From Iphione sp. A-MEVVRFRX5 (taxonomy: Eukaryota): a DNA stretch of 64,000 nt. Positions 38,269 to 61,505 of the stretch are shown here, one piece after another (positions within the stretch are counted from its first letter, which is position 1; each line of letters begins with the position of its first letter). The notes below the pieces were generated by a model, which did not search any database, was not told where the DNA came from, and was given only the letters and a program-made list of their open reading frames with translations. Location: the NCBI GenBank assembly GCA_976226885.1, contig OZ320318.1, forward strand, positions 83,142,001 to 83,206,000. Direction: 5' to 3'. The position numbers and the translations under genes are program-made.

Positions 38269-38342
38269 AGTAGTATAGTGGGGTAAGGGGTCGCGAAAAG
38301 TTTCTCCTGATTGGCTGAGCCGTGACCTCTGTGACGTCACAG
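38269..38342 (+). repeat. Left terminal inverted repeat (74 bp)
   Basis: Exact reverse complement of 61432-61505. Contains an E2F-like TTTTCGCG, a CCAAT box and the palindrome CTGTGACGTCACAG (CRE core). Confidence 0.97.
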
Positions 38343-38796: not shown

Positions 38797-38869
38797 ACCT
38801 AGATAGCTCAATTGGGAGAGCGTCAGACTGAAGTTCTGAAGGTTCACGGTTCGAACCCGTGTCTAGGTA
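38797..38869 (+). tRNA. tRNA-Phe(GAA) gene inside the Polinton
   Basis: 73-nt cloverleaf with all stems paired: ACCTAGA/TCTAGGT, GCTC/GAGC, TCAGA/TCTGA (loop CT-GAA-GT), CACGG/CCGTG (loop TTCGAAC). A and B boxes intact; T4 run 7 nt downstream. Confidence 0.9.
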
Positions 38870-39037: not shown

Positions 39038-39580
39038 ATGTCTGAGGAGAGAGATTATTCCGCTGTCGATGGATCTATTCAAGCTGATTCATGTATTGAG
39101 TCCGATTCCGGGTGTATTGAGACTGATTCCGGGTGTATTGAGACTGATTCCGGGTTTGTACCGAGCGGTAACAGACCTTTTGCTTGTTCGTTGGAAAGGA
39201 ACACAGCAACCATTCGACCATTGTATGTTAATCCGAAATCACGTTGCAATGTACCAGCATTTCCCAAGTTCAAAGATAAAGAGGTTCGCCGTCAGACGTT
39301 CGCAGGATGGAGCGGTTTGATTGACATAGAAGAACTGGTTCAGAGTGGTTTCTTCTATATAGGAGTAGGAACTGTACAATGCTTTCATTGCGGACTTTGT
39401 CTTCATTCCTGGGAGTCTTCGGATACTCCACACATTGAACATTTGAAGTTTGCACCAGAATGTGCTTTTAATTCTTCATTATCTAAACCGACGCGTCAAA
39501 GAGAATTCTTTGTTACTGTGCTACGTGATATAATCAAAGTTGCTAAGAGTGTTAAAGAACTAAAGGATTCTTTTGTTTGA
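39038..39580 (+). CDS. BIR-domain inhibitor of apoptosis-like protein (single BIR, no RING), ~180 aa
   Basis: RRQTFAGW...LVQSGFFYIGVGTVQCFHCGLCLHSWESSDTPHIEHLKFAPEC carries the BIR CxxC-H-C zinc ligands. ATG at 39038 preferred over the upstream TTG. Confidence 0.9.
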   Translation: MSEERDYSAVDGSIQADSCIESDSGCIETDSGCIETDSGFVPSGNRPFACSLERNTATIRPLYVNPKSRCNVPAFPKFKDKEVRRQTFAGWSGLIDIEELVQSGFFYIGVGTVQCFHCGLCLHSWESSDTPHIEHLKFAPECAFNSSLSKPTRQREFFVTVLRDIIKVAKSVKELKDSFV

Positions 39581-40133: not shown

Positions 40134-40802
40134 ATGGAGCTTCTTCAAACTCTTCGAGTTGGAAAGAACTATAAGCTTACTGCTTACGATCCCTTCATTG
40201 AAAGCGAAGAAAGGACTGAACCAACTATCTTTCTTTCACACATAGAAAATCGTTTTAAGCGGATTCCCTTTACATTGGATGACTTTTTACGAGAAGAGGG
40301 GAGAAATGATTTAGTTGTTGTAATTTCACCAGACCAATACATTGAGCAAGAACTCAAGGAACTTGATGACAGACCGCTTGAAATTATGAGTCTTTTTCTG
40401 TATAGCATGAGAAAAATGCGCAAGGCTATGTTTCATCAAAAGTTGAGCTTATTCCATCTTTCTGCTCTCTCTGTGGTGGGACAGATGTGGATGGTTGAAA
40501 ATTCAGAAGAATCCGATTCAGAAAGCGAAGATGCTGCATTTGATTGGAGTGTAATTCATCCATGGCATACTGAGTTTACGAAAATGTCAAAAGTAATTCA
40601 GAATCTAAAAAAACTCCCCATTCCAAAACATCTTATATCAAAAATTAAAGAAGATGTGTGTGTGAATGAATCTGGTCGATTTGTTTATGGAATCATCGAC
40701 CGAAGTGTTCATATGGAGTGGAATATTTACGTAGAGCAGGCTATGATGGATCTCTTTTCATCTCCAGATCCTAAAAAAGTTCTTCGGGAAATAAAAAGGT
40801 GA
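40134..40802 (+). CDS. Hypothetical protein with BC-box- and Cul5-box-like motifs; may splice (intron 40799-40916) to end at 40971
   Basis: 222-aa ORF with SLFHLSALSV and LKKLPIPKHL. Donor ag|gtgatt and acceptor ttacag| are phase-compatible and would add DDGTYDLFAIESNGKNH*. Confidence 0.7.
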   Translation: MELLQTLRVGKNYKLTAYDPFIESEERTEPTIFLSHIENRFKRIPFTLDDFLREEGRNDLVVVISPDQYIEQELKELDDRPLEIMSLFLYSMRKMRKAMFHQKLSLFHLSALSVVGQMWMVENSEESDSESEDAAFDWSVIHPWHTEFTKMSKVIQNLKKLPIPKHLISKIKEDVCVNESGRFVYGIIDRSVHMEWNIYVEQAMMDLFSSPDPKKVLREIKR

Positions 40803-41693: not shown

Positions 41694-42766
41694 ATGGAGA
41701 AGATTTCACCACAAATCTATATCGAGGTTGCTGAACCTTTCTTGAATCTTGAACGAAGAAAGGAAACTGGCATCAGACAATTGGAAATTCATCTTGGTCT
41801 CTTTCATATTGCGAAAGAGAAGCAGTCTCAAATTTTCAAGGGGAAAGTTATCAAGGTGGATAATTCGCAAAAGCATTGGAGCATTGAACGGAAACAATTT
41901 CATAACAAATACTATATCTGTTTCACCAGGCTTGATGATGACGGCGAACGTGTAAAGTGAGTAAGAAATTGTTGTGTCTGTTTTTTCCACAGGTCAGGAA
42001 TGAGTGCGCTAGTAAATTTCCTCTTTCATAGTGAATTCAATATTATTTTTTAAATTTGTTGGTTTTGTTTTTTAGTTATGATTCATTCAACCTGCTGGTC
42101 AGTGAGTTCGAGTCCATCTGTGAAATTCTCCATAAGAGGAAAGTGAATACCACCCCAGATTCATCCTCATCACCCACGAAGAGAAAGTCTGTGGCGACTT
42201 CACCGATGAAGAGAAGAAAGACATTACAAAACCTCTCTGCCAAACGGTTTTCATATCAATTGGTAACTTGTCTTACCGGAACAGTGCGTAATGTGTGTGA
42301 TGTGTATCTTGAAGAAGAGACTTGTATAAAAGAGGCTCAAGCTAGTGTTCAGGACGGTGAAATTCCAGAATACATTTCACTTCCATCTGTTGAACTAACA
42401 TTGAATCAGTTTGTACAAAGATGTTATGCTTATCTTTTATTGCTGGAATATAAAAAAAGAATAAAAGAGTTTTGTGAAGGTTGTCTGTTTAACGAAGACG
42501 CCCAAAATCACATTGAAGGTTGTATCTTTTCTGGAAGAGAGCCTGATGCAGACCAGTTGCATGCTGCACACATTAGAATTAGTGCACTGAGACTCATGGA
42601 AGCGTCTAAGTATATGTTAGATTACTACCATTGCTCTGATCCTAAGATCGACCTTGAAATAGATACATTGCTCTGTGAAACTGTTTTGAATGAAGCAAAA
42701 GATCATGAGAAGGATTACATTGTTGTGGAACATGAAAAGGAATATGAAGAATTATCAAGGCTTTAG
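41694..42766 (+). CDS. Spliced ~317-aa protein (exons 41694-41956, 42076-42766) with a PC4/Whirly-like ssDNA-binding-type segment and a C-terminal CxxC..H..C motif
   Basis: Donor aa|gtgagt and acceptor ttttttag|t are both phase 2 and join two ORFs in frame. WSIERKQFHNKYYICFTRLDDDGERVNYDSFNLLVSEFESI resembles the PC4 core; CEGCLFNEDAQNHIEGC lies downstream. Confidence 0.65.
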
Positions 42767-43875
42767 AGACGAAAAAACGTTTATTCAAAAGTCTTCTGTG
42801 TGCGCTGATTAGAAGAAAGTTTTCCTATGTCTAGAATCATTACACGTCAAAGTGTGCACGTTCAATGACAAGAAAAAGTTTAACATGCGTCTTGCTTTCA
42901 TGTTCAATGAGTAAGATCATTAGTCATCTATCTATCTATCTAAATGAACTAGAGTAGTTTTTCTTCCTTATTTCTTGAATCATATGTGCTGATTTGTTCT
43001 TACTTGTTTGTTTCCTTTTACAAATAATCATCTGTATTTTAACAGTACATACTGATTGTTTAGACTTGCTTGAAAAAAAATCTTAGTTTTGATTTCTCTT
43101 CAATAAAAAAACCTATGAAAAAAAATGTTATTTCTTTTTTTCTGATAAGTCTACAAATGTCCTAAGAAACAAAAAAATGTTGAGAACACAATGAAATAAC
43201 AAAAGAAAAAAAATTTCAAAAAGAAAAAAATGTTTCAAACTGAAAAAACTACCTCTATCTGAAACTAATGTGGAAAAGAGCGAGCTGTTGACCAGTCTTC
43301 TATTCAGCATCGTTGTCGACATCGTCACTTGAGCACAAACATCATTTGTTCTGGAAAAAAAAATATTTTCTAAGTCAACTGTCCTTTTATTATTTCAGTC
43401 AATTTTTTTTTGGAATAAGGTTGTGTAACTACTTATTCAAGAATTTTTAATAACTGAGTAAATCAAATTATATTTAGTTTCAAAGTAGATAAATTAACGT
43501 CTGTTTTTTTCTTAACATGTTAGTTGAAAGCTGAAAAAAATTATCACCTGAATTATCTTTCGCTTCTTGTTTTTTTTCGTGCTTGAAAAAATAAAGAACA
43601 TCTTCAAGGGCCTGGCTCTCCATCCTTCGTTACACACGTCAGGGATAGCTGCAAATCTGGCTGTCTCTCCATCCTTCGTTACACACGTCAGGGATAGCTG
43701 CAAATAAATCTGGTCCGCAGAGTTCTCACTCAAACTGGACACCCAAAAAAATTTTTCCTATTAGTAATTCTTCTTTCTTAATAAGAGATTAGTAATTCTT
43801 TTTTTTTCCAAAAAATTTGTTATATATTTCTTTCTTAACAAGAGTCTGAATTTTTATCTCCAAAAAAAAAATCAA

Positions 43876-46800
43876 TCAGTTAATGAAAAAAACAATTACC
43901 TGCAATTTGCGGAATCGTTTAGGTGTCGGTGGTGGCGCCATTGCTGTGTCAGCTGAAGCATCTGATGAGTGACTTGTCTTCGACATGCTTGCTAAGCGTC
44001 TTGAGCGTCTTGGAGTAGAAGGGGGCGTGGCACGACTTGAAATGCTCACATCTGAATCACTGTCAAACCCCGTTGCTCGTTGGGACTTGACAGACAAGCG
44101 TCTTGAGCGTCTTGGAGTAGAAGGGGGTGTGGTTCGTTGTGAAATGCTCACATCTGAATCACTGTCAAACCCCGTTGCTCGTTGGGACTTGACAGACAAG
44201 CGTCTTGAGCGTCTTGGAGTAGAAGGGGGTGTGGTTCGTTGTGAAATGCTCACATCTGAATCACTGTCAAACCCCGTTGCTCGTTGGGTCTTGACAGACA
44301 AGCGGCTTGAGCGTCTTGGAGTAGAAGGGGGTGTGGTTCGTTGTGAAATGTTCACATCTGAATCAGTCTCAAACCCCGTTGCATGTTGGGTCTTGTCAGA
44401 CAAGCGGCTTGAGCGTCTTGGAGTAGAAGGGGGTGTGGTTCGTTGTGAAATGTTCACATCTGGATCAGACTCAATCCCTGTTTGCCGTATTTCTGAAGAG
44501 CATGCTAACTGACTCATGTCTTTGTTACTAGTTTTTTCTGTTGTTTGTTTTGAAGTTTTCAAGTACTTTTCTACCACTGTCGAGTCAAGTCTGACAACTG
44601 GGTTTATTGTTTTGACGAATTTTTCCATTAATTTTCCATCTAGAAGTTTCAGAGGAAGTTTGACAATGATTTCTGGTTGCTTGCTGAGTGATGCAAAAGG
44701 GATGTTGCTTGAAGATGGAACCACTTCTGTTGACGAGAGATTGGGAGTAGGTTTGAAACACACACTTCTTGGAATTGCTTCAACTGTGTTTGAACCTGTG
44801 ACAAATGGTTTCTTTTGTGTCAGGGAAGCCTCATCTCTCGGTGGGGTGGTAGTGGAGGTGGTAGATGAAACTGTTTCCACATCTGTTGTTGATTCAATGC
44901 TACTAGAACTGGAACAAACACTTCCTGGAATTGGAACATTTGAGTTAGTGCTTGTGGAAAACGGTTTTCTAGTTGTCAGACAAGATGGGGTGGCTGAAGA
45001 AGCTNNNNNNNNNNNNNNNNNNNNNNNNNNNNNNNNNNNNNNNNNNNNNNNNNNNNNNNNNNNNNNNNNNNNNNNNNNNNNNNNNNNNNNNNNNNNNNNN
45101 NNNNNNNNNNNNNNNNNNNNNNNNNNNNNNNNCTCTGTCGGGGTGGTGGTGGTGGAGGTGGTGATAGGTGTTGAAGAGTCATCTTTTGTTGGGGTGATGG
45201 GGATAGTTGAGTCACGTGCAAAAGGATTAGTAGGCGACAGTGTTGAAGAAGAAGAAGACACATCTCTCGTTGGGCTGCTCGATAAACCAGCTACTGCATA
45301 TGCTGATGAGACATGAGCAAAAGGATTAGTAGGCGACAGCGTTGAAGAAGTCACATCTCTCGTCGGGGTAGTCGTTAAACCCACTAATGCATATGTTGAT
45401 GAGTCATGGCTAAAAGGATTAGTAGGTGACAGCATTGAAGAAACCACACCTCTCGTTGGGCTGACCGATAAAACAGCTACTGCATATGCTGACGAGTCAT
45501 GAACAAAAGGATTAGTAGGCGACAGCGTTGAAGAATTCACATCTATCGACGGACTGCTTGTTAAAACTGCTTCTCCATCTGCTGACGAGTCATGGGTTGG
45601 AGAGGAAACAGTGCAGAGACTAGCTGCTACTGCATCTGCTGTCTGTTCATTGCCAGATGGGTTGGGACAAACATCATTGTTAATGAATGAAGCAAAAGGG
45701 TTATTGCTGGAGAACACTGGCTCATTCTGTTGTCTTTCTGGTTGAACAGACTTCAGGCTGCTGATGTTTACAGGTGAAAATGATCTTTCCAATGCTGATG
45801 AATGTGTAGGTATATGAGTGAGTGAACATTCTGTTGGAGAATGACTGGGAGACGTGTTCTGCATGTTCTTTGGGAGAACATCCTTCAGACTTCTACTGGA
45901 AAAACATGATAGGTGAGAAGAAGAAGAGTGTGATGCTGTTTGAGATTGTTGTGGAGGAGTAGGTGATCGTGGTGATGGTGGTGGAGGTGGTGGACTCGTT
46001 CGCTCTGGTGATGGAGGTGGTGTTCGAGGTGATGGAGGGGGTGGTGGTGGACTCGTTCGCTCTGGTGGTGGTGGTGAACGGAGTGATAGTGGTGGATTCG
46101 TTCGCTCTGCTGGTGCTGGTGAAGAACGTGCTGGACCAGGTGAACGCTGTGGTGGTGGGATAGATTGCTCTGCTGGTGCTGGTGAAGAACGTGCTGGACC
46201 AGGTGAACGCTGCGGGAAAGGTGAACGTGGTGGTGGACTCGTTCGCTCTGGTGGAGGTGGTGATCGTGGTGATGGAGGGGGAGGTGGTGGACTCGTTCGC
46301 TCTGGTGAAGAACGTGCTGGTCCAGGTGAACGCTGTGGGAAAGGTGATCGTGGTGGTGGTGAAGAACGTGCTGGAGCAGGTGAACGCTGTGGGAAAGGTG
46401 ATCGTGGTGGTGGTGAAGAACGTGCTGGACCAGGTGAACGCTGTGGGAAAGGTGATCGTGGTGGTGGTGAAGAACGTGCTGGAGCAGGTGAACGCTGTGG
46501 GAAAGGTGATCGTGGTGGTGGTGAACGCTGTGGGAAAGGTGATCGTGGTGGCGGTGAAGAACGTGCTGGGTCAGGTGAACTTGGTGGTGTTGGTGAATGA
46601 AGGTGTACTGGATATGGAGATGTGGGGACTGGAAGCGTTGAACGTGGTCGTGCTGTCGATGATGATGATGAGGTGCCTGGAAGTGGTGAACGTGGACGAG
46701 GTGTCAATGATGATGGGGATCCTGGAAGTGTTGAACTTGGACGTGGAGACAATGATGAGGGTCCTAGAAGCGATGGTCGTGAACGTGGTGTCAATGATGA

Positions 46801-47272
46801 TGAGGGTCCTGGAAGCGATGATCGTGCTCGTGCTGACAATGATGATGAATGGGGTGGAAGAGGAGGTGGTGGAAAATGTGCTCGTGCTGGCAAGTTTGAT
46901 GTATGGGCTGGAAGAGGTGGAAGTGATGTTGAACGCGGGCGTGGTGTCAATGCTGAGTGGCCTGGAAGAGGAGGAGGTGGAAGAGATGCTGAACGTGGTG
47001 CTGGAGTTGGTCCCATACCTGATGTGGAAGGTTCCCCGTGCTGTGTTTTAGATAGAAACAGTTTTTTCAGAACATCAATTCCTGATAGACAACCACGTGT
47101 ATAATCTGGAGCTTGCCCAATGCTTCGATTTGTTGGTTTACTCTTCTGAGAAAATGTAGTATCTTGCCATAAATTGGGTGTTTCAGGGGGTTCCTCATCA
47201 TCCTCACTGTTTACTTCACCAAGCACTGCATCAGTTTGTCTGTTGTTAACTCTTGAAGGAACAGATCTATTT
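43876..47272 (-). CDS. Large Pro/Ser/Thr-rich repetitive coding exon (~1120 aa, spans a 128-N gap); probable cytoplasmic tail of the 47591-48216 membrane protein
   Basis: Stop-free frame with 54-bp, 93-bp and 102-bp coding repeats. Acceptor caaag|a at 47272 (phase 2); donor cag|gtaatt after 43900. Confidence 0.75.
45005..45132. other. Assembly gap (128 N)
   Basis: Run of N inside the repetitive large exon. Confidence 1.
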
Positions 47273-47590
47273 CTTTGAAAAATAGAATAGGAAAAAACAA
47301 AAATATATATATGCCTATTTCCAATTTTATTCTTTTTTAAAAAAAAAACCCACAGAAAATTACTAACACTCCCCTTGAATTTAGTTTTAGCAACTTTTTA
47401 CTTTTAGGGTTAGCTTCATTCAAGAAAAAAAAAATTCAGAGCCCACCTTGTCAACCTAGGCTGACAAGGATGCAACAAAAGTAGAATTTTTTTTTACCAT
47501 TTGTTTTCTTAATTAACGATTGAAAGAATTTTAGAGGGATTTTTTTTTTTCTCTAAAAAAAATCAAGGGAGTAAAAATGAACACACTAAC

Positions 47591-48216
47591 CTACGGTTCC
47601 CAAGCCATTCGAAAGCTCGTTCATAGAATGACTGCTGTGGATGTAAACTTCGTCTAGTTAAACACGGTGGTTGCACCTTATGTTTGATCCAAGCTACCAC
47701 TCCAATTGCTAATATACCAAGAATTCCCACTCCTAAGATGACTCCGACGATCACTAGATCTGTACTTTCCGTGATTTTCTTATCTTGAACCAACACCATC
47801 ATACTAGTTAACTGTTTATCAGTTTCGGAAACTGTAACATGATTCCGCTCATCAGAACTTGACCGACCTTCATTTTCTCTGTTTGATGTGTCAAGTGTCG
47901 AAGTTATCCAAGCCTCGTCGTCATTCTTTGTGGAAGATTCACTTTCGAACGGGAGTCCTTTCAGTTGAAGCAAGTTTGGGAAGATTTTATGAATGTGCGC
48001 AATAAATTCATGGCGGACACCGGTGACTTGGGGATCGACCAACTCCAGAATCTTAACACTCGGGTGTGGATAGTTTATGGTGAAGAAAAAAGCTATCTCG
48101 GTTTTGACACAATACACGTGTCCATTAAGACATGAACATTGCCTGCATAATTCCTTTGCGTCGCTTTTTCCAATAAAGAAGAACAATAAAATGATCCAAA
48201 AGATTGACAGCGTCAT
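47591..48216 (-). CDS. Type I membrane protein A: signal peptide, LRRNT-like Cys cap, short LRR-like segment, TM helix (exon 1)
   Basis: MTLSIFWIILLFFFIGKSDA; CRQCSCLNGHVYC; VKILEL...FPNLLQL; TM LVIVGVILGVGILGILAIGVVAWI; donor ag|gttagt, phase 2. Confidence 0.75.
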
Positions 48217-48700: not shown

Positions 48701-49618
48701 ATGCAGGTAAAACCAGATATATTGCTTATTGTTTTTATCTTTTCTACAAGTCAGAGCTGTCCTATAGAATGTTGGCCTTGTGCTGGAGTCATTATGAGTT
48801 GTCGTGGAAGAATTGATCCATTTAAATTTCATTTTATTAAGAATTATGCTGTTAAGGTTTTGGACTGGAAATCATGTGAAATTGAAAGAATTCATTTCAA
48901 AACATTTCTTTCTTTCCCCAATCTAATGGAATTAGATATTCGTTTTTCCTTGAAAAAATTTAACTGTAGCACATTATCTCTAATTCCAAGTCATATTTCC
49001 TATTTTTCGGATTGTTCGGCTTCAGAATCAACCTCTTCATCCACCACGGATTTTAATCGAACCTACTCATCTTATTCCACTCCACCTGTTGTTAATTCTT
49101 CAACAATTCTTAGTTTGTCCACCCCTTCACACTCTGTGATAAACACAACTATTTCTTCTCCAATAATCAGCACTCTGTTAATGTCTTCTTCTTTTTTCTC
49201 CAGCGTCCTTGTTCCAAATTCCTCTTTGTCGTCAACAACAAATACCACGCCCTCATTTCTTTTCACGACAACTTTTGTTCAAAATTCAACACATACTATT
49301 CTTTCGAATGGTATTTCTGTTAGAACCCTTAAAATTGCATTAGGATGTGTATCTGGTTTCACCATTCTGTGCTTCGGTGTTCTGTTGTGGAAAATTATTG
49401 TAAAGAAAACAAGTCAACGACGAAGCAAGGTATGTTGGTTTATTTTTGTTTTACAAACAATCATATTTTTTTTCTTGCATTTCTTTGTCTTCAGAATCAG
49501 TTCACTAATTATTTTTTTTTTCTCATTCCAGATAAACTTTTCGTCAGATGCAATGGAGGTAAAAAAAATCCAGAAAAAGTGTGAATTCTTTATTAATCAA
49601 ATGAGCACATGTTCATAA
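48701..49618 (+). CDS. Type I membrane glycoprotein B: signal peptide, LRRNT-like cap, LRR-like repeat, mucin-like S/T stalk, TM (probable intron 49430-49531)
   Basis: ILLIVFIFSTSQS; CPIECWPCAGVIMSC; VKVLDW...FPNLMELDI; several N-x-S/T sites; TM IALGCVSGFTILCFGVLLW; aag|gtatgt...cattccag| in frame. Confidence 0.78.
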   Translation: MQVKPDILLIVFIFSTSQSCPIECWPCAGVIMSCRGRIDPFKFHFIKNYAVKVLDWKSCEIERIHFKTFLSFPNLMELDIRFSLKKFNCSTLSLIPSHISYFSDCSASESTSSSTTDFNRTYSSYSTPPVVNSSTILSLSTPSHSVINTTISSPIISTLLMSSSFFSSVLVPNSSLSSTTNTTPSFLFTTTFVQNSTHTILSNGISVRTLKIALGCVSGFTILCFGVLLWKIIVKKTSQRRSKVCWFIFVLQTIIFFFLHFFVFRISSLIIFFFSFQINFSSDAMEVKKIQKKCEFFINQMSTCS

Positions 49619-52156: not shown

Positions 52157-53269
52157 TTATATACCTTCCTGTATGCGTTTCAGTTCCTCCTTACTGACCC
52201 AGGAATCATACTTACTGGGCCAACCGAGCCAGTGAACAATGAATCCGTCCTTTCCATTAAGCTTTTTTTTTCTGATAACTTTTTCTACTTTATATTGAGT
52301 ATCTTGGTTCACTTCCACCGGGATCATTTCTTCTGTATAGAATTTTCCATCTATTTCTTCATTGTCCCAAGACTTAAGTGAATATTGGGGAATACCTTGT
52401 TGCATTTTCCTGTCTGTAACCACAAACAATTCATGAGTCCAGTTTTCGTCATAAGCCCTTGTGAAGGTTTGTTTGAATTTAGATAACCTCACAACATCAC
52501 CCTTTTCAAACTTGAAAGGAAAAGTTTTGGGGATTTTCTTGTCTTTGGTAGTATCAAATTGAACGTTCCACAATTTGACTTTTTCACTCTCACTGGCTTG
52601 AAGGGGAGTCATTTTGATAGAACGATGAAAAGAATTATTGTATGAATCTGTGAAATGAGAAAGATTTTCCAACCACTTGTGACTTTGTAAGAAGTACATC
52701 TCTTTGGTGATCTTGGATTTTATTGTTTTTATGAAACGTTCAGCATAATTTGCTTTCACTTCGTTCCTCGTTACCACGTGCTTTATATTTTCTTTGTTCA
52801 GGTACTTCCTCACCCATTGATTATTGAATTCACTTCCTCCGTCAGTTCGTAGCACTTTACAAACTTGCTCTTGAAAGACAGATTTCAGTGCGCTCAATGT
52901 TTCTTTTCCCGAGAGAGTTTTGAGGGGACGAGTCCAAGCATACCTGGGAAAAACATCTATGACCACTAAGAAATAACTCATTCCATCGTTTTCTTTAGAC
53001 CATGTGACCATATTAGCAGTATCTGCATCGAATTGAAAGAATTTATCCGAAACCACCACCCTTGGTCGTTTCACAGAACGAGAAGGTTTTGAAGGGGCAA
53101 ATAACGTATATGTCTCCTGTGCTTTCAACCATTCTCGTATTTTCTTGAGAGAGATATTCTTGCCATCTTTCTTAGCTCTCGTATAAAGTGCTGTCACACC
53201 AGAAAAAGCTTCGGGTTCATTGGGGTCATAATAAATCTTGTTTAAGTACTCTTCCATCCATCGTGCCAT
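52157..53269 (-). CDS. Retroviral-type DDE integrase with C-terminal chromodomain
   Basis: FQFDADT (D), LRTDGGSEF (D), YAERFIKTIK (E); chromodomain YKVEKVI...FIVHWLGWPSKYDSWV. Consistent with the 6-bp TSD. Confidence 0.96.
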   Translation of the reverse strand: MARWMEEYLNKIYYDPNEPEAFSGVTALYTRAKKDGKNISLKKIREWLKAQETYTLFAPSKPSRSVKRPRVVVSDKFFQFDADTANMVTWSKENDGMSYFLVVIDVFPRYAWTRPLKTLSGKETLSALKSVFQEQVCKVLRTDGGSEFNNQWVRKYLNKENIKHVVTRNEVKANYAERFIKTIKSKITKEMYFLQSHKWLENLSHFTDSYNNSFHRSIKMTPLQASESEKVKLWNVQFDTTKDKKIPKTFPFKFEKGDVVRLSKFKQTFTRAYDENWTHELFVVTDRKMQQGIPQYSLKSWDNEEIDGKFYTEEMIPVEVNQDTQYKVEKVIRKKKLNGKDGFIVHWLGWPSKYDSWVSKEELKRIQEGI

Positions 53270-54661: not shown

Positions 54662-57600
54662 TCATTTATTCAACTCCATGCGTACTCTCACCTCTTCCCA
54701 TAACTCCCCGAGTTTATTCTTTCCTTTGAATTCACATGGTCGAGAAATTTTCACATTTCCAACATCCATACCTACACCCCAAAACCTGTCTAGACTAGCA
54801 TATACAATCTTTTTACAATGAGAGAGTTCTTTCCTCACTTCAGGGAAAGTTCTAGCTATATACAACATGAGATCCCTCATGATTTTGAGATTAACCTCTT
54901 CGAGATTCTCACTAGGTTTTATGAAAGAAAGTAATGACTTCATTTCTTTTGGATCAGAAGAAGAATGAATTAATCGAGCCACTTCGGTTGCACGGTGAAA
55001 CACGGCGAGGTTATAATAAAACATGTGAAACAAAGATTGAAAACCAGCAAGTTGCCATCTGTAAAAGGGATTCAAGACTTCCCAGGGTTTAGCAATTATA
55101 AAATAATCATCAACATTCCATGGGGATAATGTGATCTGAAGAGGTGAGGTGTTGATTCCATCATCATGAACGATTCTCTTTACATAGAAGTAAGAAAATC
55201 CCACTCGTTCCTGCCTATATGTAAAAATTGTTCCGTCTCGAGCTCGGAAACCAGAATTGGTACCTGATTTAGGAATCTGTGTTTCCAGAACTGAAGAATA
55301 CAACGCTAAGGGTTCTGTCACCTTAGATTTTGAAATTCCTTTACAACTGAATTTTGACACACCCTTGTTATCTAAAACATAAGTCTTACTGGTCAGTGCT
55401 ATGATGGAATCGCCTCTCGCCTCCTCTTTCATGATCCCTGGAACTCTTCTGTCAAATGAATGATGTCTGTCACAACACTGACGCATGAACCAAATCGGAG
55501 AGAGCTTATCATCACATCTATCCCTGATCTCACTGACATACTCCATCTTCTTATCAACAAAGATGTTGTCTTCAAAGTTTTCGTATGCAAAAGCAATATA
55601 AGCACTGTCGGTATCCATAGTTACGTATTGAAAATGATTTCTAGGAATAAGTCTGTCTATACAATCATAATAGAAAGATAACATAGTTAATTTAGCATAT
55701 TGTAAAATGGTGAAACCGATATAAATAGGCATATCGAGAACAATACGGGGTTTAACAGATTCTACCTCAAAAAGACCATTTAATTCATTTACTTTTCTGA
55801 AACGGGGAGAATTAATTGCATTGATCGTTTCAGTGGGATCTGAAAAATATTTTACATTCATTTGCTTTTCTTTTTGCATGATAACTCCCCCATAAGCAGA
55901 ATTCCCTATGAGCTTCATGGTGTCAGCAATCACTGCACTATCAGGATCAGAGTCACCCTGTCTTCTTGCACTTGTTACATCTTCTGTAAATTTCTTGAAA
56001 CAATCTTTGGGAACGAATTCAATCATCTGGTAAATTTTTGTAACCAGCAAACCATGTTCCATATACCATTTTAGAAGAGGAGAAGCTATGAGGATCTTTT
56101 TAGCAGACAAAGCACTGACCAGAAGCTCTCTCGGATTTCGTGATAGATTATGTTCTTCAACATGTTTCTGCATGTGGGGACCAAAATGATTGAATTCGAC
56201 ACTTGCCTTTCCAAATAAAGGACACATTTCTGAGAAATATTCCTTTGGTGGGAGTTCCCTCTCCATTCCTTCAGGCCAAACATTGGGAACTGAAATATCC
56301 ACTTCCAGAGCACCAAACAGACTTCCATCAGAAACCCCCTTTAAAATATCCTTAGTCGTGACCTTTCCAGGATGCTTGCGAGTGAACTCAGGATAAAATA
56401 AATTCACCCAGTCTTGAAGCTCTGTTGAATTTTGAATCATTTCCCTGAAGTAGCACTCGTTCATACTAATTACTTCATAACCATTTTTTTCAAAAAAATG
56501 CTTTCTCTTTTTTGTTCGTTCCTCATTTTTCTTTCGGATATTTTCTTTCATTTTTCCCTTCATACAAATATGACCATGAAAATAACACCCATCGAACTCG
56601 AAAATCTGTTTGGAACTCTGTGAATGACTATAACCATCGACCCTATAAGGACCCACTCTGACTTCACCCTCAGCTCTGTTCTGAAAATGAGAGATATGAA
56701 TCCCACGCTTTTCAGATTCCCACTCCAACCAGATATACATCAATTGGTAAACAGAATGACGAACAGGTTTGAAACCAGTCTCTTCATGCCTTCTGACAAA
56801 ATTTCCAGTCGGCATTGCATTTCCAATTGCAGATAAATAGAGACTGTTTGCATCAAAGCCAATAATTGTTTGACATTTGTGTGGACCAGATCTGATGAAA
56901 GTTTCATTAGCAATATGCTTTCGAGTAAATACTATTGCTGGACCACCTACTAAATTCCTCTTATAAGTTTGATATAAATCTTCCTCAGAATTATTGAATA
57001 AAGGGAAATGTGTGTTACTCTCTGAAGCTGACTGGAAAAGCATTCTACGTGCTATCCCTGGAGCAGAGACTGAAATCTTGAATATATCTATTTCTCTTTG
57101 AAAATAGAAATCTTGTAAACGAACAACAGCTGTAACAAAAGGTCCAACATCCAGATTATTATAATAGGCTAAAAAATCCCTCAGCGTTTCCATCCCTTCC
57201 CTTTCCCATATACACAATAATTGTTCGTATTCCTCTCGGGAAATATTTGAGTTCCTAAAAGATGAATAAAAAGCATCATGTGGAGGAAGAGAGCGATCAT
57301 TTAACTTTTCTGGGCAGTCCAAATATTCATAACAAAAGAAGGATTTCTGCTCTGGTACTCCATATGCCTTCAGAAATTTCGAATAGGATACCCCTGGACT
57401 CAAATACTGACATATGTCAAGAAATTTGAATTGATCATTGGATATACAGATATAAGAATTCTCTCGTTTAATGACAAAGGTTTCCTTTCCCACCAGATCC
57501 AAATGGTTTAAGAGTTGCTTTCTGAGAAGATTTAGGTCATATCTCGCCGAATTGAATCCTAAAACTGGAAGACAAGAAATGTAAGCCAGTAGACGCTTTT

Positions 57601-59470
57601 CCAAACTTCCAATCAATTTCAACATTTCTAAACTCTCATGTTCTTTCCTTTCAGAGTCCACGTCATCACCAGCCGTGTCTCCATCATCGATCACACCACC
57701 AATCCCCACGTCACATTCATGAATTGGATAACAGTCAACCCAAGAGGAATCTTCTTCTGTCATCATCACCTCCTCCACCACCTCCTCCTCCACCTGCACT
57801 TCACGTTCGATTCCCGCATGCTTAAGTTCTTCCAAAAGATCCTTTCTCATTTCCTTTAAAGCACTCAATGCAAAAGCCCATTTCTCTTTACCCTTCTTTA
57901 GAGTCTCCTCTTGAATTCTCTTTAGATAATCCACCATTTCCTCAACAAGAGCAGACATGTCCTCATTGATAAAGCAACGTGGAGTTGAGAAATTTTCCAC
58001 ATTACTACAGACAGAAACTGAAATCGTCTCGTGTTTGTTAATCCAGTGTAATTTAGAACAATTTCCAGGATCTGTGGCACGAAGCATTGCCTCGCAATCG
58101 AACACTGCAAAATCACGAAAAAGTCGATCCTCTCGTGGAACATGAATCCCAACACTTTCCAATTCTTCAAAAATTGTGGAAGGATTACTATAGAAACCCC
58201 CTTTGTAGTGATACGTTGTTTTAAGAGGACAGGTTCTCATGTGTCTGAGAAAATGGTGCTTCTTTTTTAAACAGAAACCACACATTGAACACTCAAATTT
58301 CTGAGCATACCTTGGAAAATCTGAAACATACGAGAGATGACCATGGTACACATTTAAGTACATTGTGTCAGTGAAACAAGTGAATGGTTTATGTTTGAGT
58401 TTCACTGAATCATTAACAGTCATTTCATAAATGTATATACTCGTCTCGAAACATCTCTCGAACTCTCCTACAAGTTTCATATCAAGACCAGCAAACTCAA
58501 AAGGATCAGAGGGAATAGATAGTTTGAGTTTTCTGTTGCAATACTGATTCCATTGTTCATAATATACAGTAACTGCAGCCTCGATATCTGCTTGTTGATT
58601 GTGAACGGCCAAACACCTAAATGCACAAAGCGAGTCTGTGATCTGTGTGGAATCATCGTGACGGTCAAGTGAAATGAGAAATGGTTTCCTTTTTAAAAAT
58701 TCAGGCAAGAAACCGTATCCTAAAGTAAAAGACGTTTTCGAAATGAAATAAGTCACATTTGTAATCATGACTGCTTTCCATTTGGTGTCTGGTCGATTCA
58801 CAGTAAAATAACCCTCTGGATCAAAAGCACTAAGCCTCTCCAAGATTCGGGGTATGTCTGACCTTCTTGAAATAATGACAGGATCTGAAAATACTGTACT
58901 GTTCCGATACGGAACAAAGTACCTGTACTCTCCACTCTCCACATGTCTTAAGATAACTCCAAACCCGAGATTCAGTTTGATTCGTGAGTCTTCGAGATGG
59001 AAAATCTCGTTTAGTTGGCTAGTAAATTCATTCACACCATCTGAAAGATTATTGGTAGGGAAATTAAAAGTACTCGAAACCTGACCCGACCTGTGATTTG
59101 CAAGAATATGTCCACGATTAGCTTCATACACTCTTCTCAGGGGTTCATCAACAACCGAACCATGTTCATCAAGCCATGGTGCAGCATTGTGCTGCCATGG
59201 TTCTTCCTGAAGTGTATCACCACTTCCATGCTGAATGCCATTGTGCATATACAAATCTTTTTTGGAATTAAAGACCTCAGAACATTTCCTACACCTATAA
59301 GATTTTCTTTTGCTGTGATATGACATGTGATGGTTTAATTGCTGAACAGTTCTAAAGCGCCTATTACATTGCATACATGTTAGGTTTTTCTTCTGCTGAC
59401 ACTTGGGAATATGGTTCTTTGCATTCTTCTCACGAACGAAGGATCTGGAGCATATGGGACATATGTGTCT
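54662..59470 (-). CDS. Protein-primed family B DNA polymerase (pPolB), main exon: zinc fingers, terminal-protein region, vOTU-like protease, exonuclease, polymerase with Vsr-like insertion, C-terminal NADAR-like domain
   Basis: ExoI FDCE, ExoII FNSARYD, ExoIII YNNLD; Pol DANSLY, KLIGNSAYG, MDTDS. Frame stays open upstream of ATG 59374 to acceptor ttttttctag| at 59470. AATAAA overlaps the stop codon. Confidence 0.97.
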   Translation of the reverse strand, partial: RHICPICSRSFVREKNAKNHIPKCQQKKNLTCMQCNRRFRTVQQLNHHMSYHSKRKSYRCRKCSEVFNSKKDLYMHNGIQHGSGDTLQEEPWQHNAAPWLDEHGSVVDEPLRRVYEANRGHILANHRSGQVSSTFNFPTNNLSDGVNEFTSQLNEIFHLEDSRIKLNLGFGVILRHVESGEYRYFVPYRNSTVFSDPVIISRRSDIPRILERLSAFDPEGYFTVNRPDTKWKAVMITNVTYFISKTSFTLGYGFLPEFLKRKPFLISLDRHDDSTQITDSLCAFRCLAVHNQQADIEAAVTVYYEQWNQYCNRKLKLSIPSDPFEFAGLDMKLVGEFERCFETSIYIYEMTVNDSVKLKHKPFTCFTDTMYLNVYHGHLSYVSDFPRYAQKFECSMCGFCLKKKHHFLRHMRTCPLKTTYHYKGGFYSNPSTIFEELESVGIHVPREDRLFRDFAVFDCEAMLRATDPGNCSKLHWINKHETISVSVCSNVENFSTPRCFINEDMSALVEEMVDYLKRIQEETLKKGKEKWAFALSALKEMRKDLLEELKHAGIEREVQVEEEVVEEVMMTEEDSSWVDCYPIHECDVGIGGVIDDGDTAGDDVDSERKEHESLEMLKLIGSLEKRLLAYISCLPVLGFNSARYDLNLLRKQLLNHLDLVGKETFVIKRENSYICISNDQFKFLDICQYLSPGVSYSKFLKAYGVPEQKSFFCYEYLDCPEKLNDRSLPPHDAFYSSFRNSNISREEYEQLLCIWEREGMETLRDFLAYYNNLDVGPFVTAVVRLQDFYFQREIDIFKISVSAPGIARRMLFQSASESNTHFPLFNNSEEDLYQTYKRNLVGGPAIVFTRKHIANETFIRSGPHKCQTIIGFDANSLYLSAIGNAMPTGNFVRRHEETGFKPVRHSVYQLMYIWLEWESEKRGIHISHFQNRAEGEVRVGPYRVDGYSHSQSSKQIFEFDGCYFHGHICMKGKMKENIRKKNEERTKKRKHFFEKNGYEVISMNECYFREMIQNSTELQDWVNLFYPEFTRKHPGKVTTKDILKGVSDGSLFGALEVDISVPNVWPEGMERELPPKEYFSEMCPLFGKASVEFNHFGPHMQKHVEEHNLSRNPRELLVSALSAKKILIASPLLKWYMEHGLLVTKIYQMIEFVPKDCFKKFTEDVTSARRQGDSDPDSAVIADTMKLIGNSAYGGVIMQKEKQMNVKYFSDPTETINAINSPRFRKVNELNGLFEVESVKPRIVLDMPIYIGFTILQYAKLTMLSFYYDCIDRLIPRNHFQYVTMDTDSAYIAFAYENFEDNIFVDKKMEYVSEIRDRCDDKLSPIWFMRQCCDRHHSFDRRVPGIMKEEARGDSIIALTSKTYVLDNKGVSKFSCKGISKSKVTEPLALYSSVLETQIPKSGTNSGFRARDGTIFTYRQERVGFSYFYVKRIVHDDGINTSPLQITLSPWNVDDYFIIAKPWEVLNPFYRWQLAGFQSLFHMFYYNLAVFHRATEVARLIHSSSDPKEMKSLLSFIKPSENLEEVNLKIMRDLMLYIARTFPEVRKELSHCKKIVYASLDRFWGVGMDVGNVKISRPCEFKGKNKLGELWEEVRVRMELNK

Positions 59471-59572
59471 CTAGAAAAAATGTAATAAATCGTTATAAAA
59501 AAACAAATTCATTGAAAAAGCGAAATTGACAAAAAAAATCTTTTTTTAAAACCACAAATTGTTAGCTCTTAC

Positions 59573-59626
59573 CTTTTTTTCTTCACTAGTTCCTGAACCA
59601 GCAGATGATGACACAGTGGGAGAGTT
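59573..59626 (-). CDS. pPolB putative exon 3
   Basis: tttacacag|NSPTVSSSAGSGTSEEKK|gtaaga, phase 0-0. Confidence 0.6.
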
Positions 59627-59760
59627 CTGTGTAAACAGAGACAAGGGCGCAGGTAGGATTTACTTTTGGAATAATGTCGTAAAAAAAACAAGAATCTATT
59701 CATATATTTAAAAAAAGTAAAAAAACATGGAAGCGAAACATAGATTTATTTCTCTCTTAC

Positions 59761-59856
59761 CACAGGTGAAGATGAAGAAGGCCGAGCAGATGTGGAAGGA
59801 CTATTAGGAAGGAACTCGCTGCTAGAGTCAACAAAAAATTCATCAAGCACTGCCCT
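59761..59856 (-). CDS. pPolB putative exon 2
   Basis: ttttcttttcag|RAVLDEFFVDSSSEFLPNSPSTSARPSSSSPV|gtaaga, phase 0-0. Confidence 0.68.
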
Positions 59857-59947
59857 CTGAAAAGAAAAGGATAAAACAAAAGGATTGTCTTCAATGTGAA
59901 ATAAATGAAAGATTAAAAAAACTATAAAAAACAAAATTAAACTTTAC

Positions 59948-60109
59948 CTCTTCACTTGTTAAATGCTGAATACGCTCCAATTTTCTCTTCTTTTCAAGAA
60001 CGAGTGGATTATCTTCAATGTTGTTGTCATTCGCCCATTGCATGAGCTCATGAACGTTTGTGAAATCTCTGAGTCCATTCCTGATGAAATCGATGTTAGC
60101 TTGTGCCAT
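59948..60109 (-). CDS. pPolB putative exon 1
   Basis: ATG...MAQANIDFIRNG...LTSEE|gtaaag, 54 codons, phase 0. Confidence 0.68.
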
Positions 60110-60148
60110 TCTTGAATACTGAAGGGATTCGGTTAAAATCAGCCTCCC

Positions 60149-60156
60149 TATTTATA
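60149..60156 (-). promoter_or_regulatory. TATA box for the pPolB transcript
   Basis: TATAAATA on the minus strand 40 bp upstream of ATG 60109. Confidence 0.65.
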
Positions 60157-61046
60157 GAGGATGGGATATCAGTTATCAGATATGAAATGTGATTTCACAA
60201 CCAAGTGAAAGGACTGGAAAATAGATTCGAATACTTTTTTCCCAATATCTAATAAATGTATCCTAATTGAAAGTATTGTTTTTTCATTCATTCCCGTCAT
60301 AATAGAAAACTATGATGAAATCATTTTTATGGAATATCAAAACACATACGCCATCTATATTTAAGTTTCAGCAAAAGCGAAAATATTTTTCCTGCATATG
60401 ACACTAGGTGGAGTTGAAGGGACATGATTGCAACAAGATTCGAGTCTCCATCTATCCGCTAGATGGCTACATAAAAATCATTGCTCTAGTTCCATTGCTT
60501 ACCGGTAGGATTGAAATAGACGCTAACAAACAACGATTCGTCTTTTTTTAGCAAAATATAAATGATTGACAATGTTTTCCATCTCTACATACAGTTAAAA
60601 AGTTGAAATACTCCATAATTAAATGAAAAAATGAATAGGGAATTGAATACAAAACCGAAACAAGCATATTAATATGGAATACAGTTATTTTTTCAAACAT
60701 CTCCTAAAAAACACCATTTACAGATACATTTAAATTAAATATAGTCTTATCTGAAATGAAATCCTGGTATGTTTGTTTTGGGACAGTCTTCCCTTGATCA
60801 TTGGAGGACTGGCTCATTTTCGGGTCAGCACCTCCCTGAATCATTGGAGGACTACCTGAATAGTTTTAGGAAGGATTCCTCGTGCATAGTTGCCCCAAGG
60901 TCCGCTCGTGTCCCGCCTGGCACGAGCGGCAATTTTTGAACAGGGACGCTCTAATTAGCGTCCCGATAATCAAATAGAAAAAAAAATCCCCATAGTCCAC
61001 GTTCAATAATTGAACCACCATACGTTACTCCAATGTAAAAAAGGTC

Positions 61047-61118
61047 TTCCCAGACTCGGATTTGAACCGAGGACATACGGATATTCCGTCCGACGCTCTC
61101 CCACTGAGCTACCTGGGA
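61047..61118 (-). tRNA. tRNA-Phe(GAA)-like Pol III gene with a non-canonical anticodon loop
   Basis: 72 nt: TCCCAGG/TCTGGGA, GCTC/GAGC, TCGGA/TCCGT (one mismatch, loop CG-GAA-TA), CTCGG/CCGAG (loop TTCAAAT). A and B boxes intact; T6 terminator 4 nt downstream. Confidence 0.78.
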
Positions 61119-61431: not shown

Positions 61432-61505
61432 CTGTGACGTCACAGAGGTCACGGCTCAGCCAATCAGGAGAAACTTTTCGCGACCCCTTACCCCACTATA
61501 CTACT
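61432..61505 (-). repeat. Right terminal inverted repeat (74 bp)
   Basis: Exact reverse complement of 38269-38342. Confidence 0.97.

Follow-up and report, generated by a model that had tools for sequence, protein, structure and literature searches.

A tandem array of HMGN-like motifs in the predicted membrane-protein tail of a Maverick element from Iphione sp.

A stretch of 64,000 nucleotides from Iphione sp. A-MEVVRFRX5 (assembly GCA_976226885.1, contig OZ320318.1, positions 83,142,001 to 83,206,000 of the forward strand), here called the window, holds a complete mobile element. The element is a Maverick/Polinton, as denoted by its terminal inverted repeats, 6-bp target-site duplication and core gene set. 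The inverted arms (38269-38342 and 61432-61505) measure 74 nt and are 100% identical, and the hexanucleotide GTGGTT is duplicated on both flanks. On the minus strand, a 1,173-codon open frame carries at its end a tandem array of short arginine motifs resembling those by which HMGN proteins dock on nucleosomes. Just upstream, on the same strand, lies a 217-codon open reading frame (ORF); its product would open with a hydrophobic segment, followed by a Cys-rich ectodomain, a single transmembrane (TM) helix and a basic stretch. The value of the finding lies in a nucleosome-type motif, apparently selected and expandable, on a likely membrane protein.

38269-61505, unstranded: complete Maverick/Polinton, 23.2 kb, terminal inverted repeats starting AGTAGT, 6-bp target-site duplication GTGGTT (arms, flanks, core genes)
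43990-44481, minus strand: repeat array, each unit with an acidic stretch, TPPSTP and RRSxRL (Tandem Repeats Finder and translation)
44398-44418, minus strand: motif 1, RRSSRLS, residues 1-6 identical to Dsup RRSSRLTS (translation; Dsup motif from excerpts of PMC13347269)
44296-44316, minus strand: motif 2, RRSSRLS (translation)
44194-44214, minus strand: motif 3, RRSRRLS (translation)
44092-44112, minus strand: motif 4, RRSRRLS (translation)
43990-44010, minus strand: motif 5, RRSRRLA (translation)

The 102-bp repeat encoding 34 amino acids, reported at this place in the original prediction, is confirmed both by Tandem Repeats Finder (43994-44467, period 102, 4.6 copies, 95% matches) and by translation of the minus strand, which yields five 34-residue units running from 44481 down to 43990. 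The general form of the motif is STPRRSxRL. RRSSRLS and RRSRRLS occur twice each, and RRSRRLA once; RRSxRLS, formerly counted five times, marks four units, the fifth ending in RLA. The repeat unit as then quoted is exact for units 3 and 4, and differs at the start from units 1 (TGIESDPDVN) and 2 (TGFETDSDVN). The acidic patch noted in each unit is seen in all units of the window, but its DSDSD stretch is not retained in the sister lineages B and C described below. Sites of the cyclin-dependent kinase (CDK) type, noted as TPxR, are present, read T-P-R-R and overlap the RRSxRL motif, but [ST]Px[KR] sites are expected from composition alone (99.8% of shuffles).

The five copies are one amplification of a single unit, and represent one event for chance purposes. 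The array was collapsed to one unit, and the composition of the frame shuffled 20,000 times: RRSxRL emerged in 0.4%, and [ST]PRRSxRL in 0.015% of the shuffles, figures which only set the scale because the pattern was picked after being seen.

The genome hosts 13 close copies, including that of the window, plus one diverged and broken copy. Members of family A carry 5 to 8 units per copy, and RRSxRL is intact in 66 of the 75 units found in 13 copies, arginine losses being due to changes of CGC to CAC or TGC. TPRRSxRL is carried also by the lineages A2, B and C, with protease identities of 86%, 74% and about 67%, respectively. Spacers flanking the motif in these lineages differ or cannot be aligned, and the units have different lengths. 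Codons were compared in units chosen by the motif itself, and degenerate units were tallied separately. The residues T, P, R1, R2, S, R5 and L each use more than one synonymous codon between lineages, and at position x the residues S, R, H, L, P, K and Q are all found. The use of synonymous codons, the freedom of x and the lack of relation among spacers in three sister lineages point to TPRRSxRL behaving as a selected short linear motif.

By sequence, the array falls into the class of HMGN-like motifs directed to the nucleosome acidic patch, as those of Dsup and Dot5, and binding is predicted. The HMGN core RRSARLSA, the Dsup motif RRSSRLTS and the Dot5 motif RRSARIAT share with the units described here the R-R-S-x-R-hydrophobic core, all three essential arginines, the serine in third position and a disordered context. 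Three arginines are essential in Dsup, and nucleosome binding by Dot5 is lost on change of R6, R7 or R10 (PMC13347269). In cryo-electron microscopy structures the fifth-position arginine anchors both Dsup (R367) and HMGN2 (R26), and a phosphoserine modelled in third position (pS24) repels the acidic patch (10.1101/2025.01.06.631586). The same patch is the predicted target of an RxxRL loop in APC3 (10.1101/2023.10.26.564157). In the window, R1, R2, S3, the anchor-position R5 and the hydrophobic residue that follows are present in 5/5 units, and RRSSRL is identical to Dsup in two of the five. A serine follows the leucine in 4/5 units, where Dsup has T and Dot5 A (PMC13347269). The residues fixed in the motif are those that Dsup, Dot5 and HMGN use at the acidic patch.

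The HMGN-like character of the motif proposed in the original prediction is supported for R1, R2, S3, R5, for multivalency and for the conserved adjoining TP; the second serine is not kept in B and C. In contrast to HMGN, Dsup and Dot5, which have one copy of the motif, five to eight copies are found here in tandem, preceded by a fixed S-T-P, in what is likely a membrane protein of a mobile element. HMGN family members are small soluble vertebrate proteins with an HMGN Pfam domain, and are not matched by the domain-free exon of 1,124 codons which hosts the array; searched in two parts, the tail frame gave no Pfam family at E<=0.01, HMGN domain included.

Folding of one unit with host H2A-H2B, proposed with the original prediction, provided weak support: the median score was 0.48 (0.47, 0.48, 0.69), the best of 3 controls 0.00. 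Contacts agree among runs in at least 75% of cases and the partner pLDDT (predicted local distance difference test) is at least 53; no interface was returned. In calibration, the mark was reached by 51/78 solved and 2/108 mismatched pairs; scores of 0.60 or less include only 5/78 solved pairs, yet all 4 passing mismatches of 180.

The location of the array in the encoded protein depends on the gene model, the elements of which are the following.

47591-48216, minus strand: predicted first coding exon, with signal-peptide-like start, Cys-rich ectodomain resembling leucine-rich repeats (LRR), linker, TM helix and basic stop-transfer stretch (sequence and AlphaFold2)
about 47695-47754, minus strand: TM helix (hydropathy 2.88; helix pLDDT 80-90 at residues 151-180)
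47591/47590, minus strand: donor AG|GTTAGT closing the TM exon (splice-signal scoring)
47273-47590, minus strand: predicted phase-2 intron, 318 nt (conserved splice signals)
43900-47272, minus strand: predicted large exon, 1,124 codons, S/P/T-rich, holding the repeat, with no second TM segment (splicing deduced from sequence)
47273/47272 and 43900/43899, minus strand: predicted acceptor (phase 2) and donor (phase 0) of the large exon
47155-47172, minus strand: LWQDTT motif, kept in all 11 families, upstream of the first ATG of the frame at 47016 (alignment)
45215-45705, minus strand: approximate span of five NPF motifs (family A; none in the B and C tails examined)
44560-44670, minus strand: most conserved tail block, IIVKLPLK...NPVVRLD...KYL (alignment)
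43900-43935, minus strand: basic end of the large exon, PPPTPKRFRKLQ (sequence)

A hydrophobic start, a single TM helix and a basic stop-transfer stretch, as expected of type I membrane proteins, are all present in the upstream frame. The signal peptide was judged from the hydrophobic start, and the LRR likeness of the ectodomain from a weak match to an LRR-TM protein, together with a pattern that we take to be typical of such repeats. AlphaFold2 models of the TM exon have a mean pLDDT of 52.8, too low for a fold search. Part of the large exon reads N in the window sequence.

The splice signals of the window and of 33 of 40 loci taken from other families, the remaining seven being the distant loci L069-L075, were scored by means of a simple consensus model; L065 and L068, in which the TM exon is broken, were skipped. 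The loci belong to 11 related families and are not independent. Downstream of the TM helix, the best donor has phase 2 in 32/32 loci (77/238 GT sites in the background), the best stop-free acceptor in 27/32 (199/327 in the background). An aligned acceptor ahead of R|NR was found in 24 of the 25 loci listed, which cover lineages A to C. Protein similarity breaks off at the donor, and picks up again at the acceptor. The exon core varies in length from 3,312 to 3,765 nt across family A, and is a multiple of 3 in 13/13 copies, 3 of which have one stop. The large exon terminates in A, A2, B and C at a phase-0 donor after K[L/F]Q, and the basic character of this end is also kept in A2, B and C. The 1,124-codon disordered frame is likely spliced to the upstream exon for the signal peptide, ectodomain and TM helix. 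Because splice signals are conserved and in phase, similarity breaks at donor and acceptor, and LWQDTT precedes the ATG, the repeat most likely lies at the very end of a type I membrane protein's cytoplasmic-side tail, some 950 residues from the membrane.

Past the 43900 donor, splicing to a conserved acceptor near 43351 would extend the protein by two residues before a stop; lineages B and C gave no shared exon after the large one. An exon-like stretch at 43253-43351 (minus strand) is conserved, its phase 0 being closed after two codons (TGA here, TAA in the diverged copy), its phase 2 open. Phase 2 is the phase of the TM-exon donor, so that skipping of the large exon could yield a short-tailed form. 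The predicted intron following the large exon features a 49-bp direct repeat (43612-43705) with TGACGTGT, which we take to be similar to the cAMP response element or the G-box; TGACGTCA is present in the terminal repeats as well.

Homologues of the TM exon fused to longer proteins were not found at E<=0.001 among 7,992 scored from 5.8 billion proteins, which is weak evidence. A profile search of 1.84 billion representatives gave 4 weak matches on the linker and TM part, one to an LRR-TM protein and none to a true relative, and the TM exon had no match in a phage collection.

Additional motifs mark the tail. The basic exon end PPPTPKRFRKLQ is presumably similar to a nuclear localisation signal (NLS). 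PEIIVKLPLKLL, at 44640-44670 (minus strand), resembles what we assume to be peptides bound by ET domains or AF9; B and C read LI[I/V]RLTSP at this place. The most conserved block includes PVVRL (44601-44587), a PxVxL sequence of the kind found in 16/17 tails examined. PxVxL is an HP1-binding motif (PMC13371100), and the block may add HP1 binding to the tail.

A possible reading, which we hold tentatively and at somewhat less than even chance, is that the array docks on the nucleosome acidic patch from a tail spliced to a single-pass Maverick membrane protein, and fastens host chromatin to a membrane in the manner of the lamin B receptor (LBR). The TM exon and the large exon would be joined by splicing, and the protein would enter the endoplasmic reticulum, leaving the tail on the cytosolic or nucleoplasmic side. 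The basic C-terminal end and some 950 disordered residues would let the tail reach chromatin, either at the inner nuclear membrane or during opening and re-forming of the envelope. R5 would serve as arginine anchor and R1 and R2 contact a second site, several units engaging several nucleosomes, with the PxVxL block possibly adding HP1 binding. Phosphorylation at the adjacent TP and at S3 would free chromatin in mitosis, as for LBR. The likely gain would be host chromatin that is remodelled or moved in cells with an active element, rather than the carriage of a viral genome. LBR itself is bound to chromatin and HP1, and phosphorylation in mitosis sets it free (PMC5617974); an NLS and a disordered linker can bring membrane proteins to the inner membrane (PMC4569319).

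Like LBR (PMC5617974), the Maverick protein is predicted to combine a membrane anchor with a chromatin-binding stretch that is basic and R/S-rich, with an HP1 site and with an adjoining CDK site. LBR differs in its eight TM segments, its Tudor domain and its activity as a sterol reductase (PMC5617974). The protein described here is unrelated to it in sequence, has a single TM helix, would carry its ectodomain on the lumenal side and has a tail that is far longer. The stronger proposal that a Maverick clade encodes an outright LBR mimic, made by a receptor-like single-pass protein with a 1,100-residue tail, a copy-number-variable, CDK-gated acidic-patch array and an HP1-type site, linking nucleosomes of the host straight to a membrane, is unlikely.

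Several data weigh against chromatin tethering from a membrane. The motif is intact in only 4/6 units in A2, 10/16 in B and 20/32 in C, and the serine after RL, the second serine of HMGN, is replaced in B and C by R, A or Q. No motif was found in 28 tail frames from more distant loci (eight families and seven further loci), one stray match lying outside the long frame; being absent from 28/28 distant frames, the motif is one that the wider group can do without. The distant tails still share LW[E/D/Q]DT and an NP[C/V]VxL block. In the gene model, the acceptor half is weak because 61% of the acceptor background is already in phase 2, and the acceptor itself is AAG, a less common form. Controls in the folding runs included no arginine-rich peptides, and the method is uncalibrated for peptides. 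As like complexes have already been solved, the pass may be memory of the Dsup, HMGN or LANA structures; AlphaFold 3 put the HMGN2 anchor in the wrong place (10.1101/2025.01.06.631586). Active import into the inner membrane is limited to a small subset of proteins (PMC4569319), and a tail of this size would be large for this route. By analogy with vaccinia A36 (PMC10883800), NPF motifs and a receptor-like ectodomain would favour the plasma membrane and endosomes.

In another reading, the five units serve as kinase, degron or import signals in a membrane protein of the cell surface or of endosomes, with no nucleosome binding in the cell. This reading is somewhat unlikely. The candidate signals are T-P-R-R for CDK, basophilic sites of the RRxS type (the plain kinase sites named as an alternative in the original prediction), TPPSTP in the role of a GSK3/Fbw7-type phosphodegron, or a repeated weak NLS. 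The TP that immediately precedes RR varies no more than the motif does; in B and C, degenerate units retain TP..S.RL after loss of RR; NPF motifs suggest endocytic adaptors. All 9 tails examined in A, B and C carry TPPx[ST]P, against 0/8 of the more distant ones. TPPSTP resembles what we take to be the Myc T58/S62 degron, but the Fbw7 consensus, as we assume it, needs a hydrophobic residue before the first Thr, and none is found in the repeat unit. In plant CMT2, tandem RRSxR copies are located in a region that is required for nuclear localisation (10.1101/2024.07.11.603080). Kinase sites poorly account for R5 and L6 being fixed beside a free position 4, and the weak fold support for H2A-H2B also counts against this reading.

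The motif might bind nucleosomes as part of a soluble protein, the tail being cleaved off, or the large exon being spliced to a non-coding leader as well and starting at its own ATG (47016). Like IE1, LANA and overexpressed Dot5, a free tail would then be a competitor at the acidic patch and would change the chromatin of the host. Both proposals, taken jointly, are distinctly unlikely. An in-frame ATG is found near the exon start in A, A2, B and C, a splice-acceptor-like site was spotted by eye upstream of the TM gene at about 48274, and the basic exon end is NLS-like; competition for the acidic patch by viral proteins has been proposed (PMC9040877). Against this, the position of the ATG varies between lineages, and family A has the conserved LWQDTT ahead of it. 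Sites for cleavage by an adenovirus-type protease, searched with a consensus that we assume to be correct, are missing in the 4 family-A tails examined.

The original prediction also saw in the array a possible tether of viral genomes or of the integration complex to host chromatin, as LANA or foamy-virus Gag. Likeness of the motif, multivalency and an integrase encoded by the element fit this view, and viral tethers to the acidic patch are established (PMC9040877). The hold on viral DNA or integrase is unsupported: the tail is low-complexity and has no Pfam domain able to provide it (a short motif of a new kind might), a membrane anchor is likely, the integrase has a chromodomain of its own, and distant multi-copy families lacking the motif also populate the genome. 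We regard this version as highly improbable. Scarcely credible is the reading of the repeat as a neutral slippage product in a low-complexity frame, or of the plus-strand ORF 43985-44512 as the coding strand: unit number does vary from 5 to 8 between near-identical copies, and an antisense frame of 175 amino acids spans the array and is open in 12/14 A and A2 copies, but the motif survives synonymous change in B and C despite unalignable spacers, the reading frame is held in 13/13 length variants, and the antisense ORF was rejected as a true gene, being broken in 12/12 B and C copies.

KSHV (Kaposi's sarcoma-associated herpesvirus) LANA, HCMV (human cytomegalovirus) IE1 and foamy-virus Gag are not known to be membrane proteins. 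They too are virus-encoded, feature a short arginine motif and bind the patch predicted as target here (PMC9040877). They are described as viral-genome tethers, whereas the Maverick protein showed no part able to bind a genome, and its tail is likely anchored in a membrane. The viruses whose acidic-patch binders are reviewed in PMC9040877 are herpesviruses and one retrovirus. Vaccinia A36, likewise an integral membrane protein of a virus, has many motifs in its cytoplasmic tail, NPF repeats among them, but recruits actin regulators via phosphotyrosines, and no nucleosome-type motif is described in the excerpts of PMC10883800; the NPFs found here are family-specific. Plant CMT2, a chromatin protein too, has a disordered region with one to nine RRSxR copies in tandem, but is a cellular soluble enzyme (10.1101/2024.07.11.603080). 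Both tandem RRSxR arrays, in CMT2, and viral acidic-patch binders, in herpesviruses and foamy virus, are already known (10.1101/2024.07.11.603080; PMC9040877).

Adintoviruses/Mavericks share with the element terminal inverted repeats, a 6-bp target-site duplication, a PolB-like gene, ATPase, rve integrase, capsid-like genes, protease and IAP (PMC8502044). The accessory genes named there are different, and include membrane-active PLA2X, GasderminX and Cupiennin, and motif-bearing Oncoids; the main text of PMC8502044, as excerpted, makes no mention of spliced or transmembrane genes, a point on which its supplementary tables may bear. Literature searches under the name Polinton found no published link between Polintons and the nucleosome acidic patch. 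No paper on an RRSxRL motif in Mavericks was found in the literature searched, which covers few subscription papers, and no such membrane-to-nucleosome tether was found there for a virus-like element. If true, a selected and expandable HMGN-type array in a Maverick would extend the acidic-patch strategy to another virus lineage and, if set on a membrane anchor, would be a new arrangement in which a mobile element controls the position of host chromatin. If the motif were only a phosphorylation array, the protein would have an ordinary motif-rich viral membrane tail.

The element carries other genes. The integrase is located as follows.

52157-53269, minus strand: rve integrase with a C-terminal chromodomain, a candidate chromatin-reading module of its own (PF00665 E=3e-8, PF00385 E=1e-7)

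In the Pfam search of the element, rve is above the cut-off, while Pox_A32 for the packaging ATPase (E=0.003) and Peptidase_C5 for the adenovirus-type protease (E=0.004) are below. The PolB-like and capsid genes found no Pfam match, and are assigned by motifs, size and gene order which we take to be typical of Mavericks. A search with the protease gave at least 152 matches in the genome, distributed across many families. To our knowledge, almost no accessory genes of animal Mavericks have an assigned function.

The PolB-like protein ends in a NADAR domain (54662-55050, minus strand; PF08719 E=5e-11). Upstream of its frame (59470-60160, minus strand), a TATA-like box, an ATG near 60106 and short GT...AG-bounded stretches were noted by eye, and these signals suggest a PolB gene with spliced 5' exons. 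Sequences similar to tRNA-Phe are found at 38797-38869 (plus strand) and 61047-61118 (minus strand), inverted and about 0.4-0.5 kb inside the element ends, and are possibly Pol III promoters or small-RNA genes. A second membrane-protein gene (48701-49618, plus strand), set head to head with the gene studied here, features a signal-like start, an LRR-like region, an S/T-rich stalk and a TM helix, and appears to finish at a splice donor as well. An IAP/BIR gene, identified by Pfam, and two orphan ORFs reside on the plus strand at 39038-39580, 40134-40802 and 42206-42766. The frame at 42206-42766 has a CxGC...HxxxC motif, presumably as in Maverick accessory proteins.

Tails of the distant loci L048-L068 have a conserved SPVF[F/L]S[Y/F]R.IH..G block in place of the RRSxRL end, and KGKGK repeats after LW[E/D/Q]DT. 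In one family (L055-L058) the ectodomain module is in tandem duplicate. In L069, which belongs to a more distant family, an ORF following the TM gene (from 3711 on, in the orientation of the protease strand) carries PLRRPERERRQPDRL, which resembles what we assume to be chromatin motifs of the CENP-C type or of retrotransposons.

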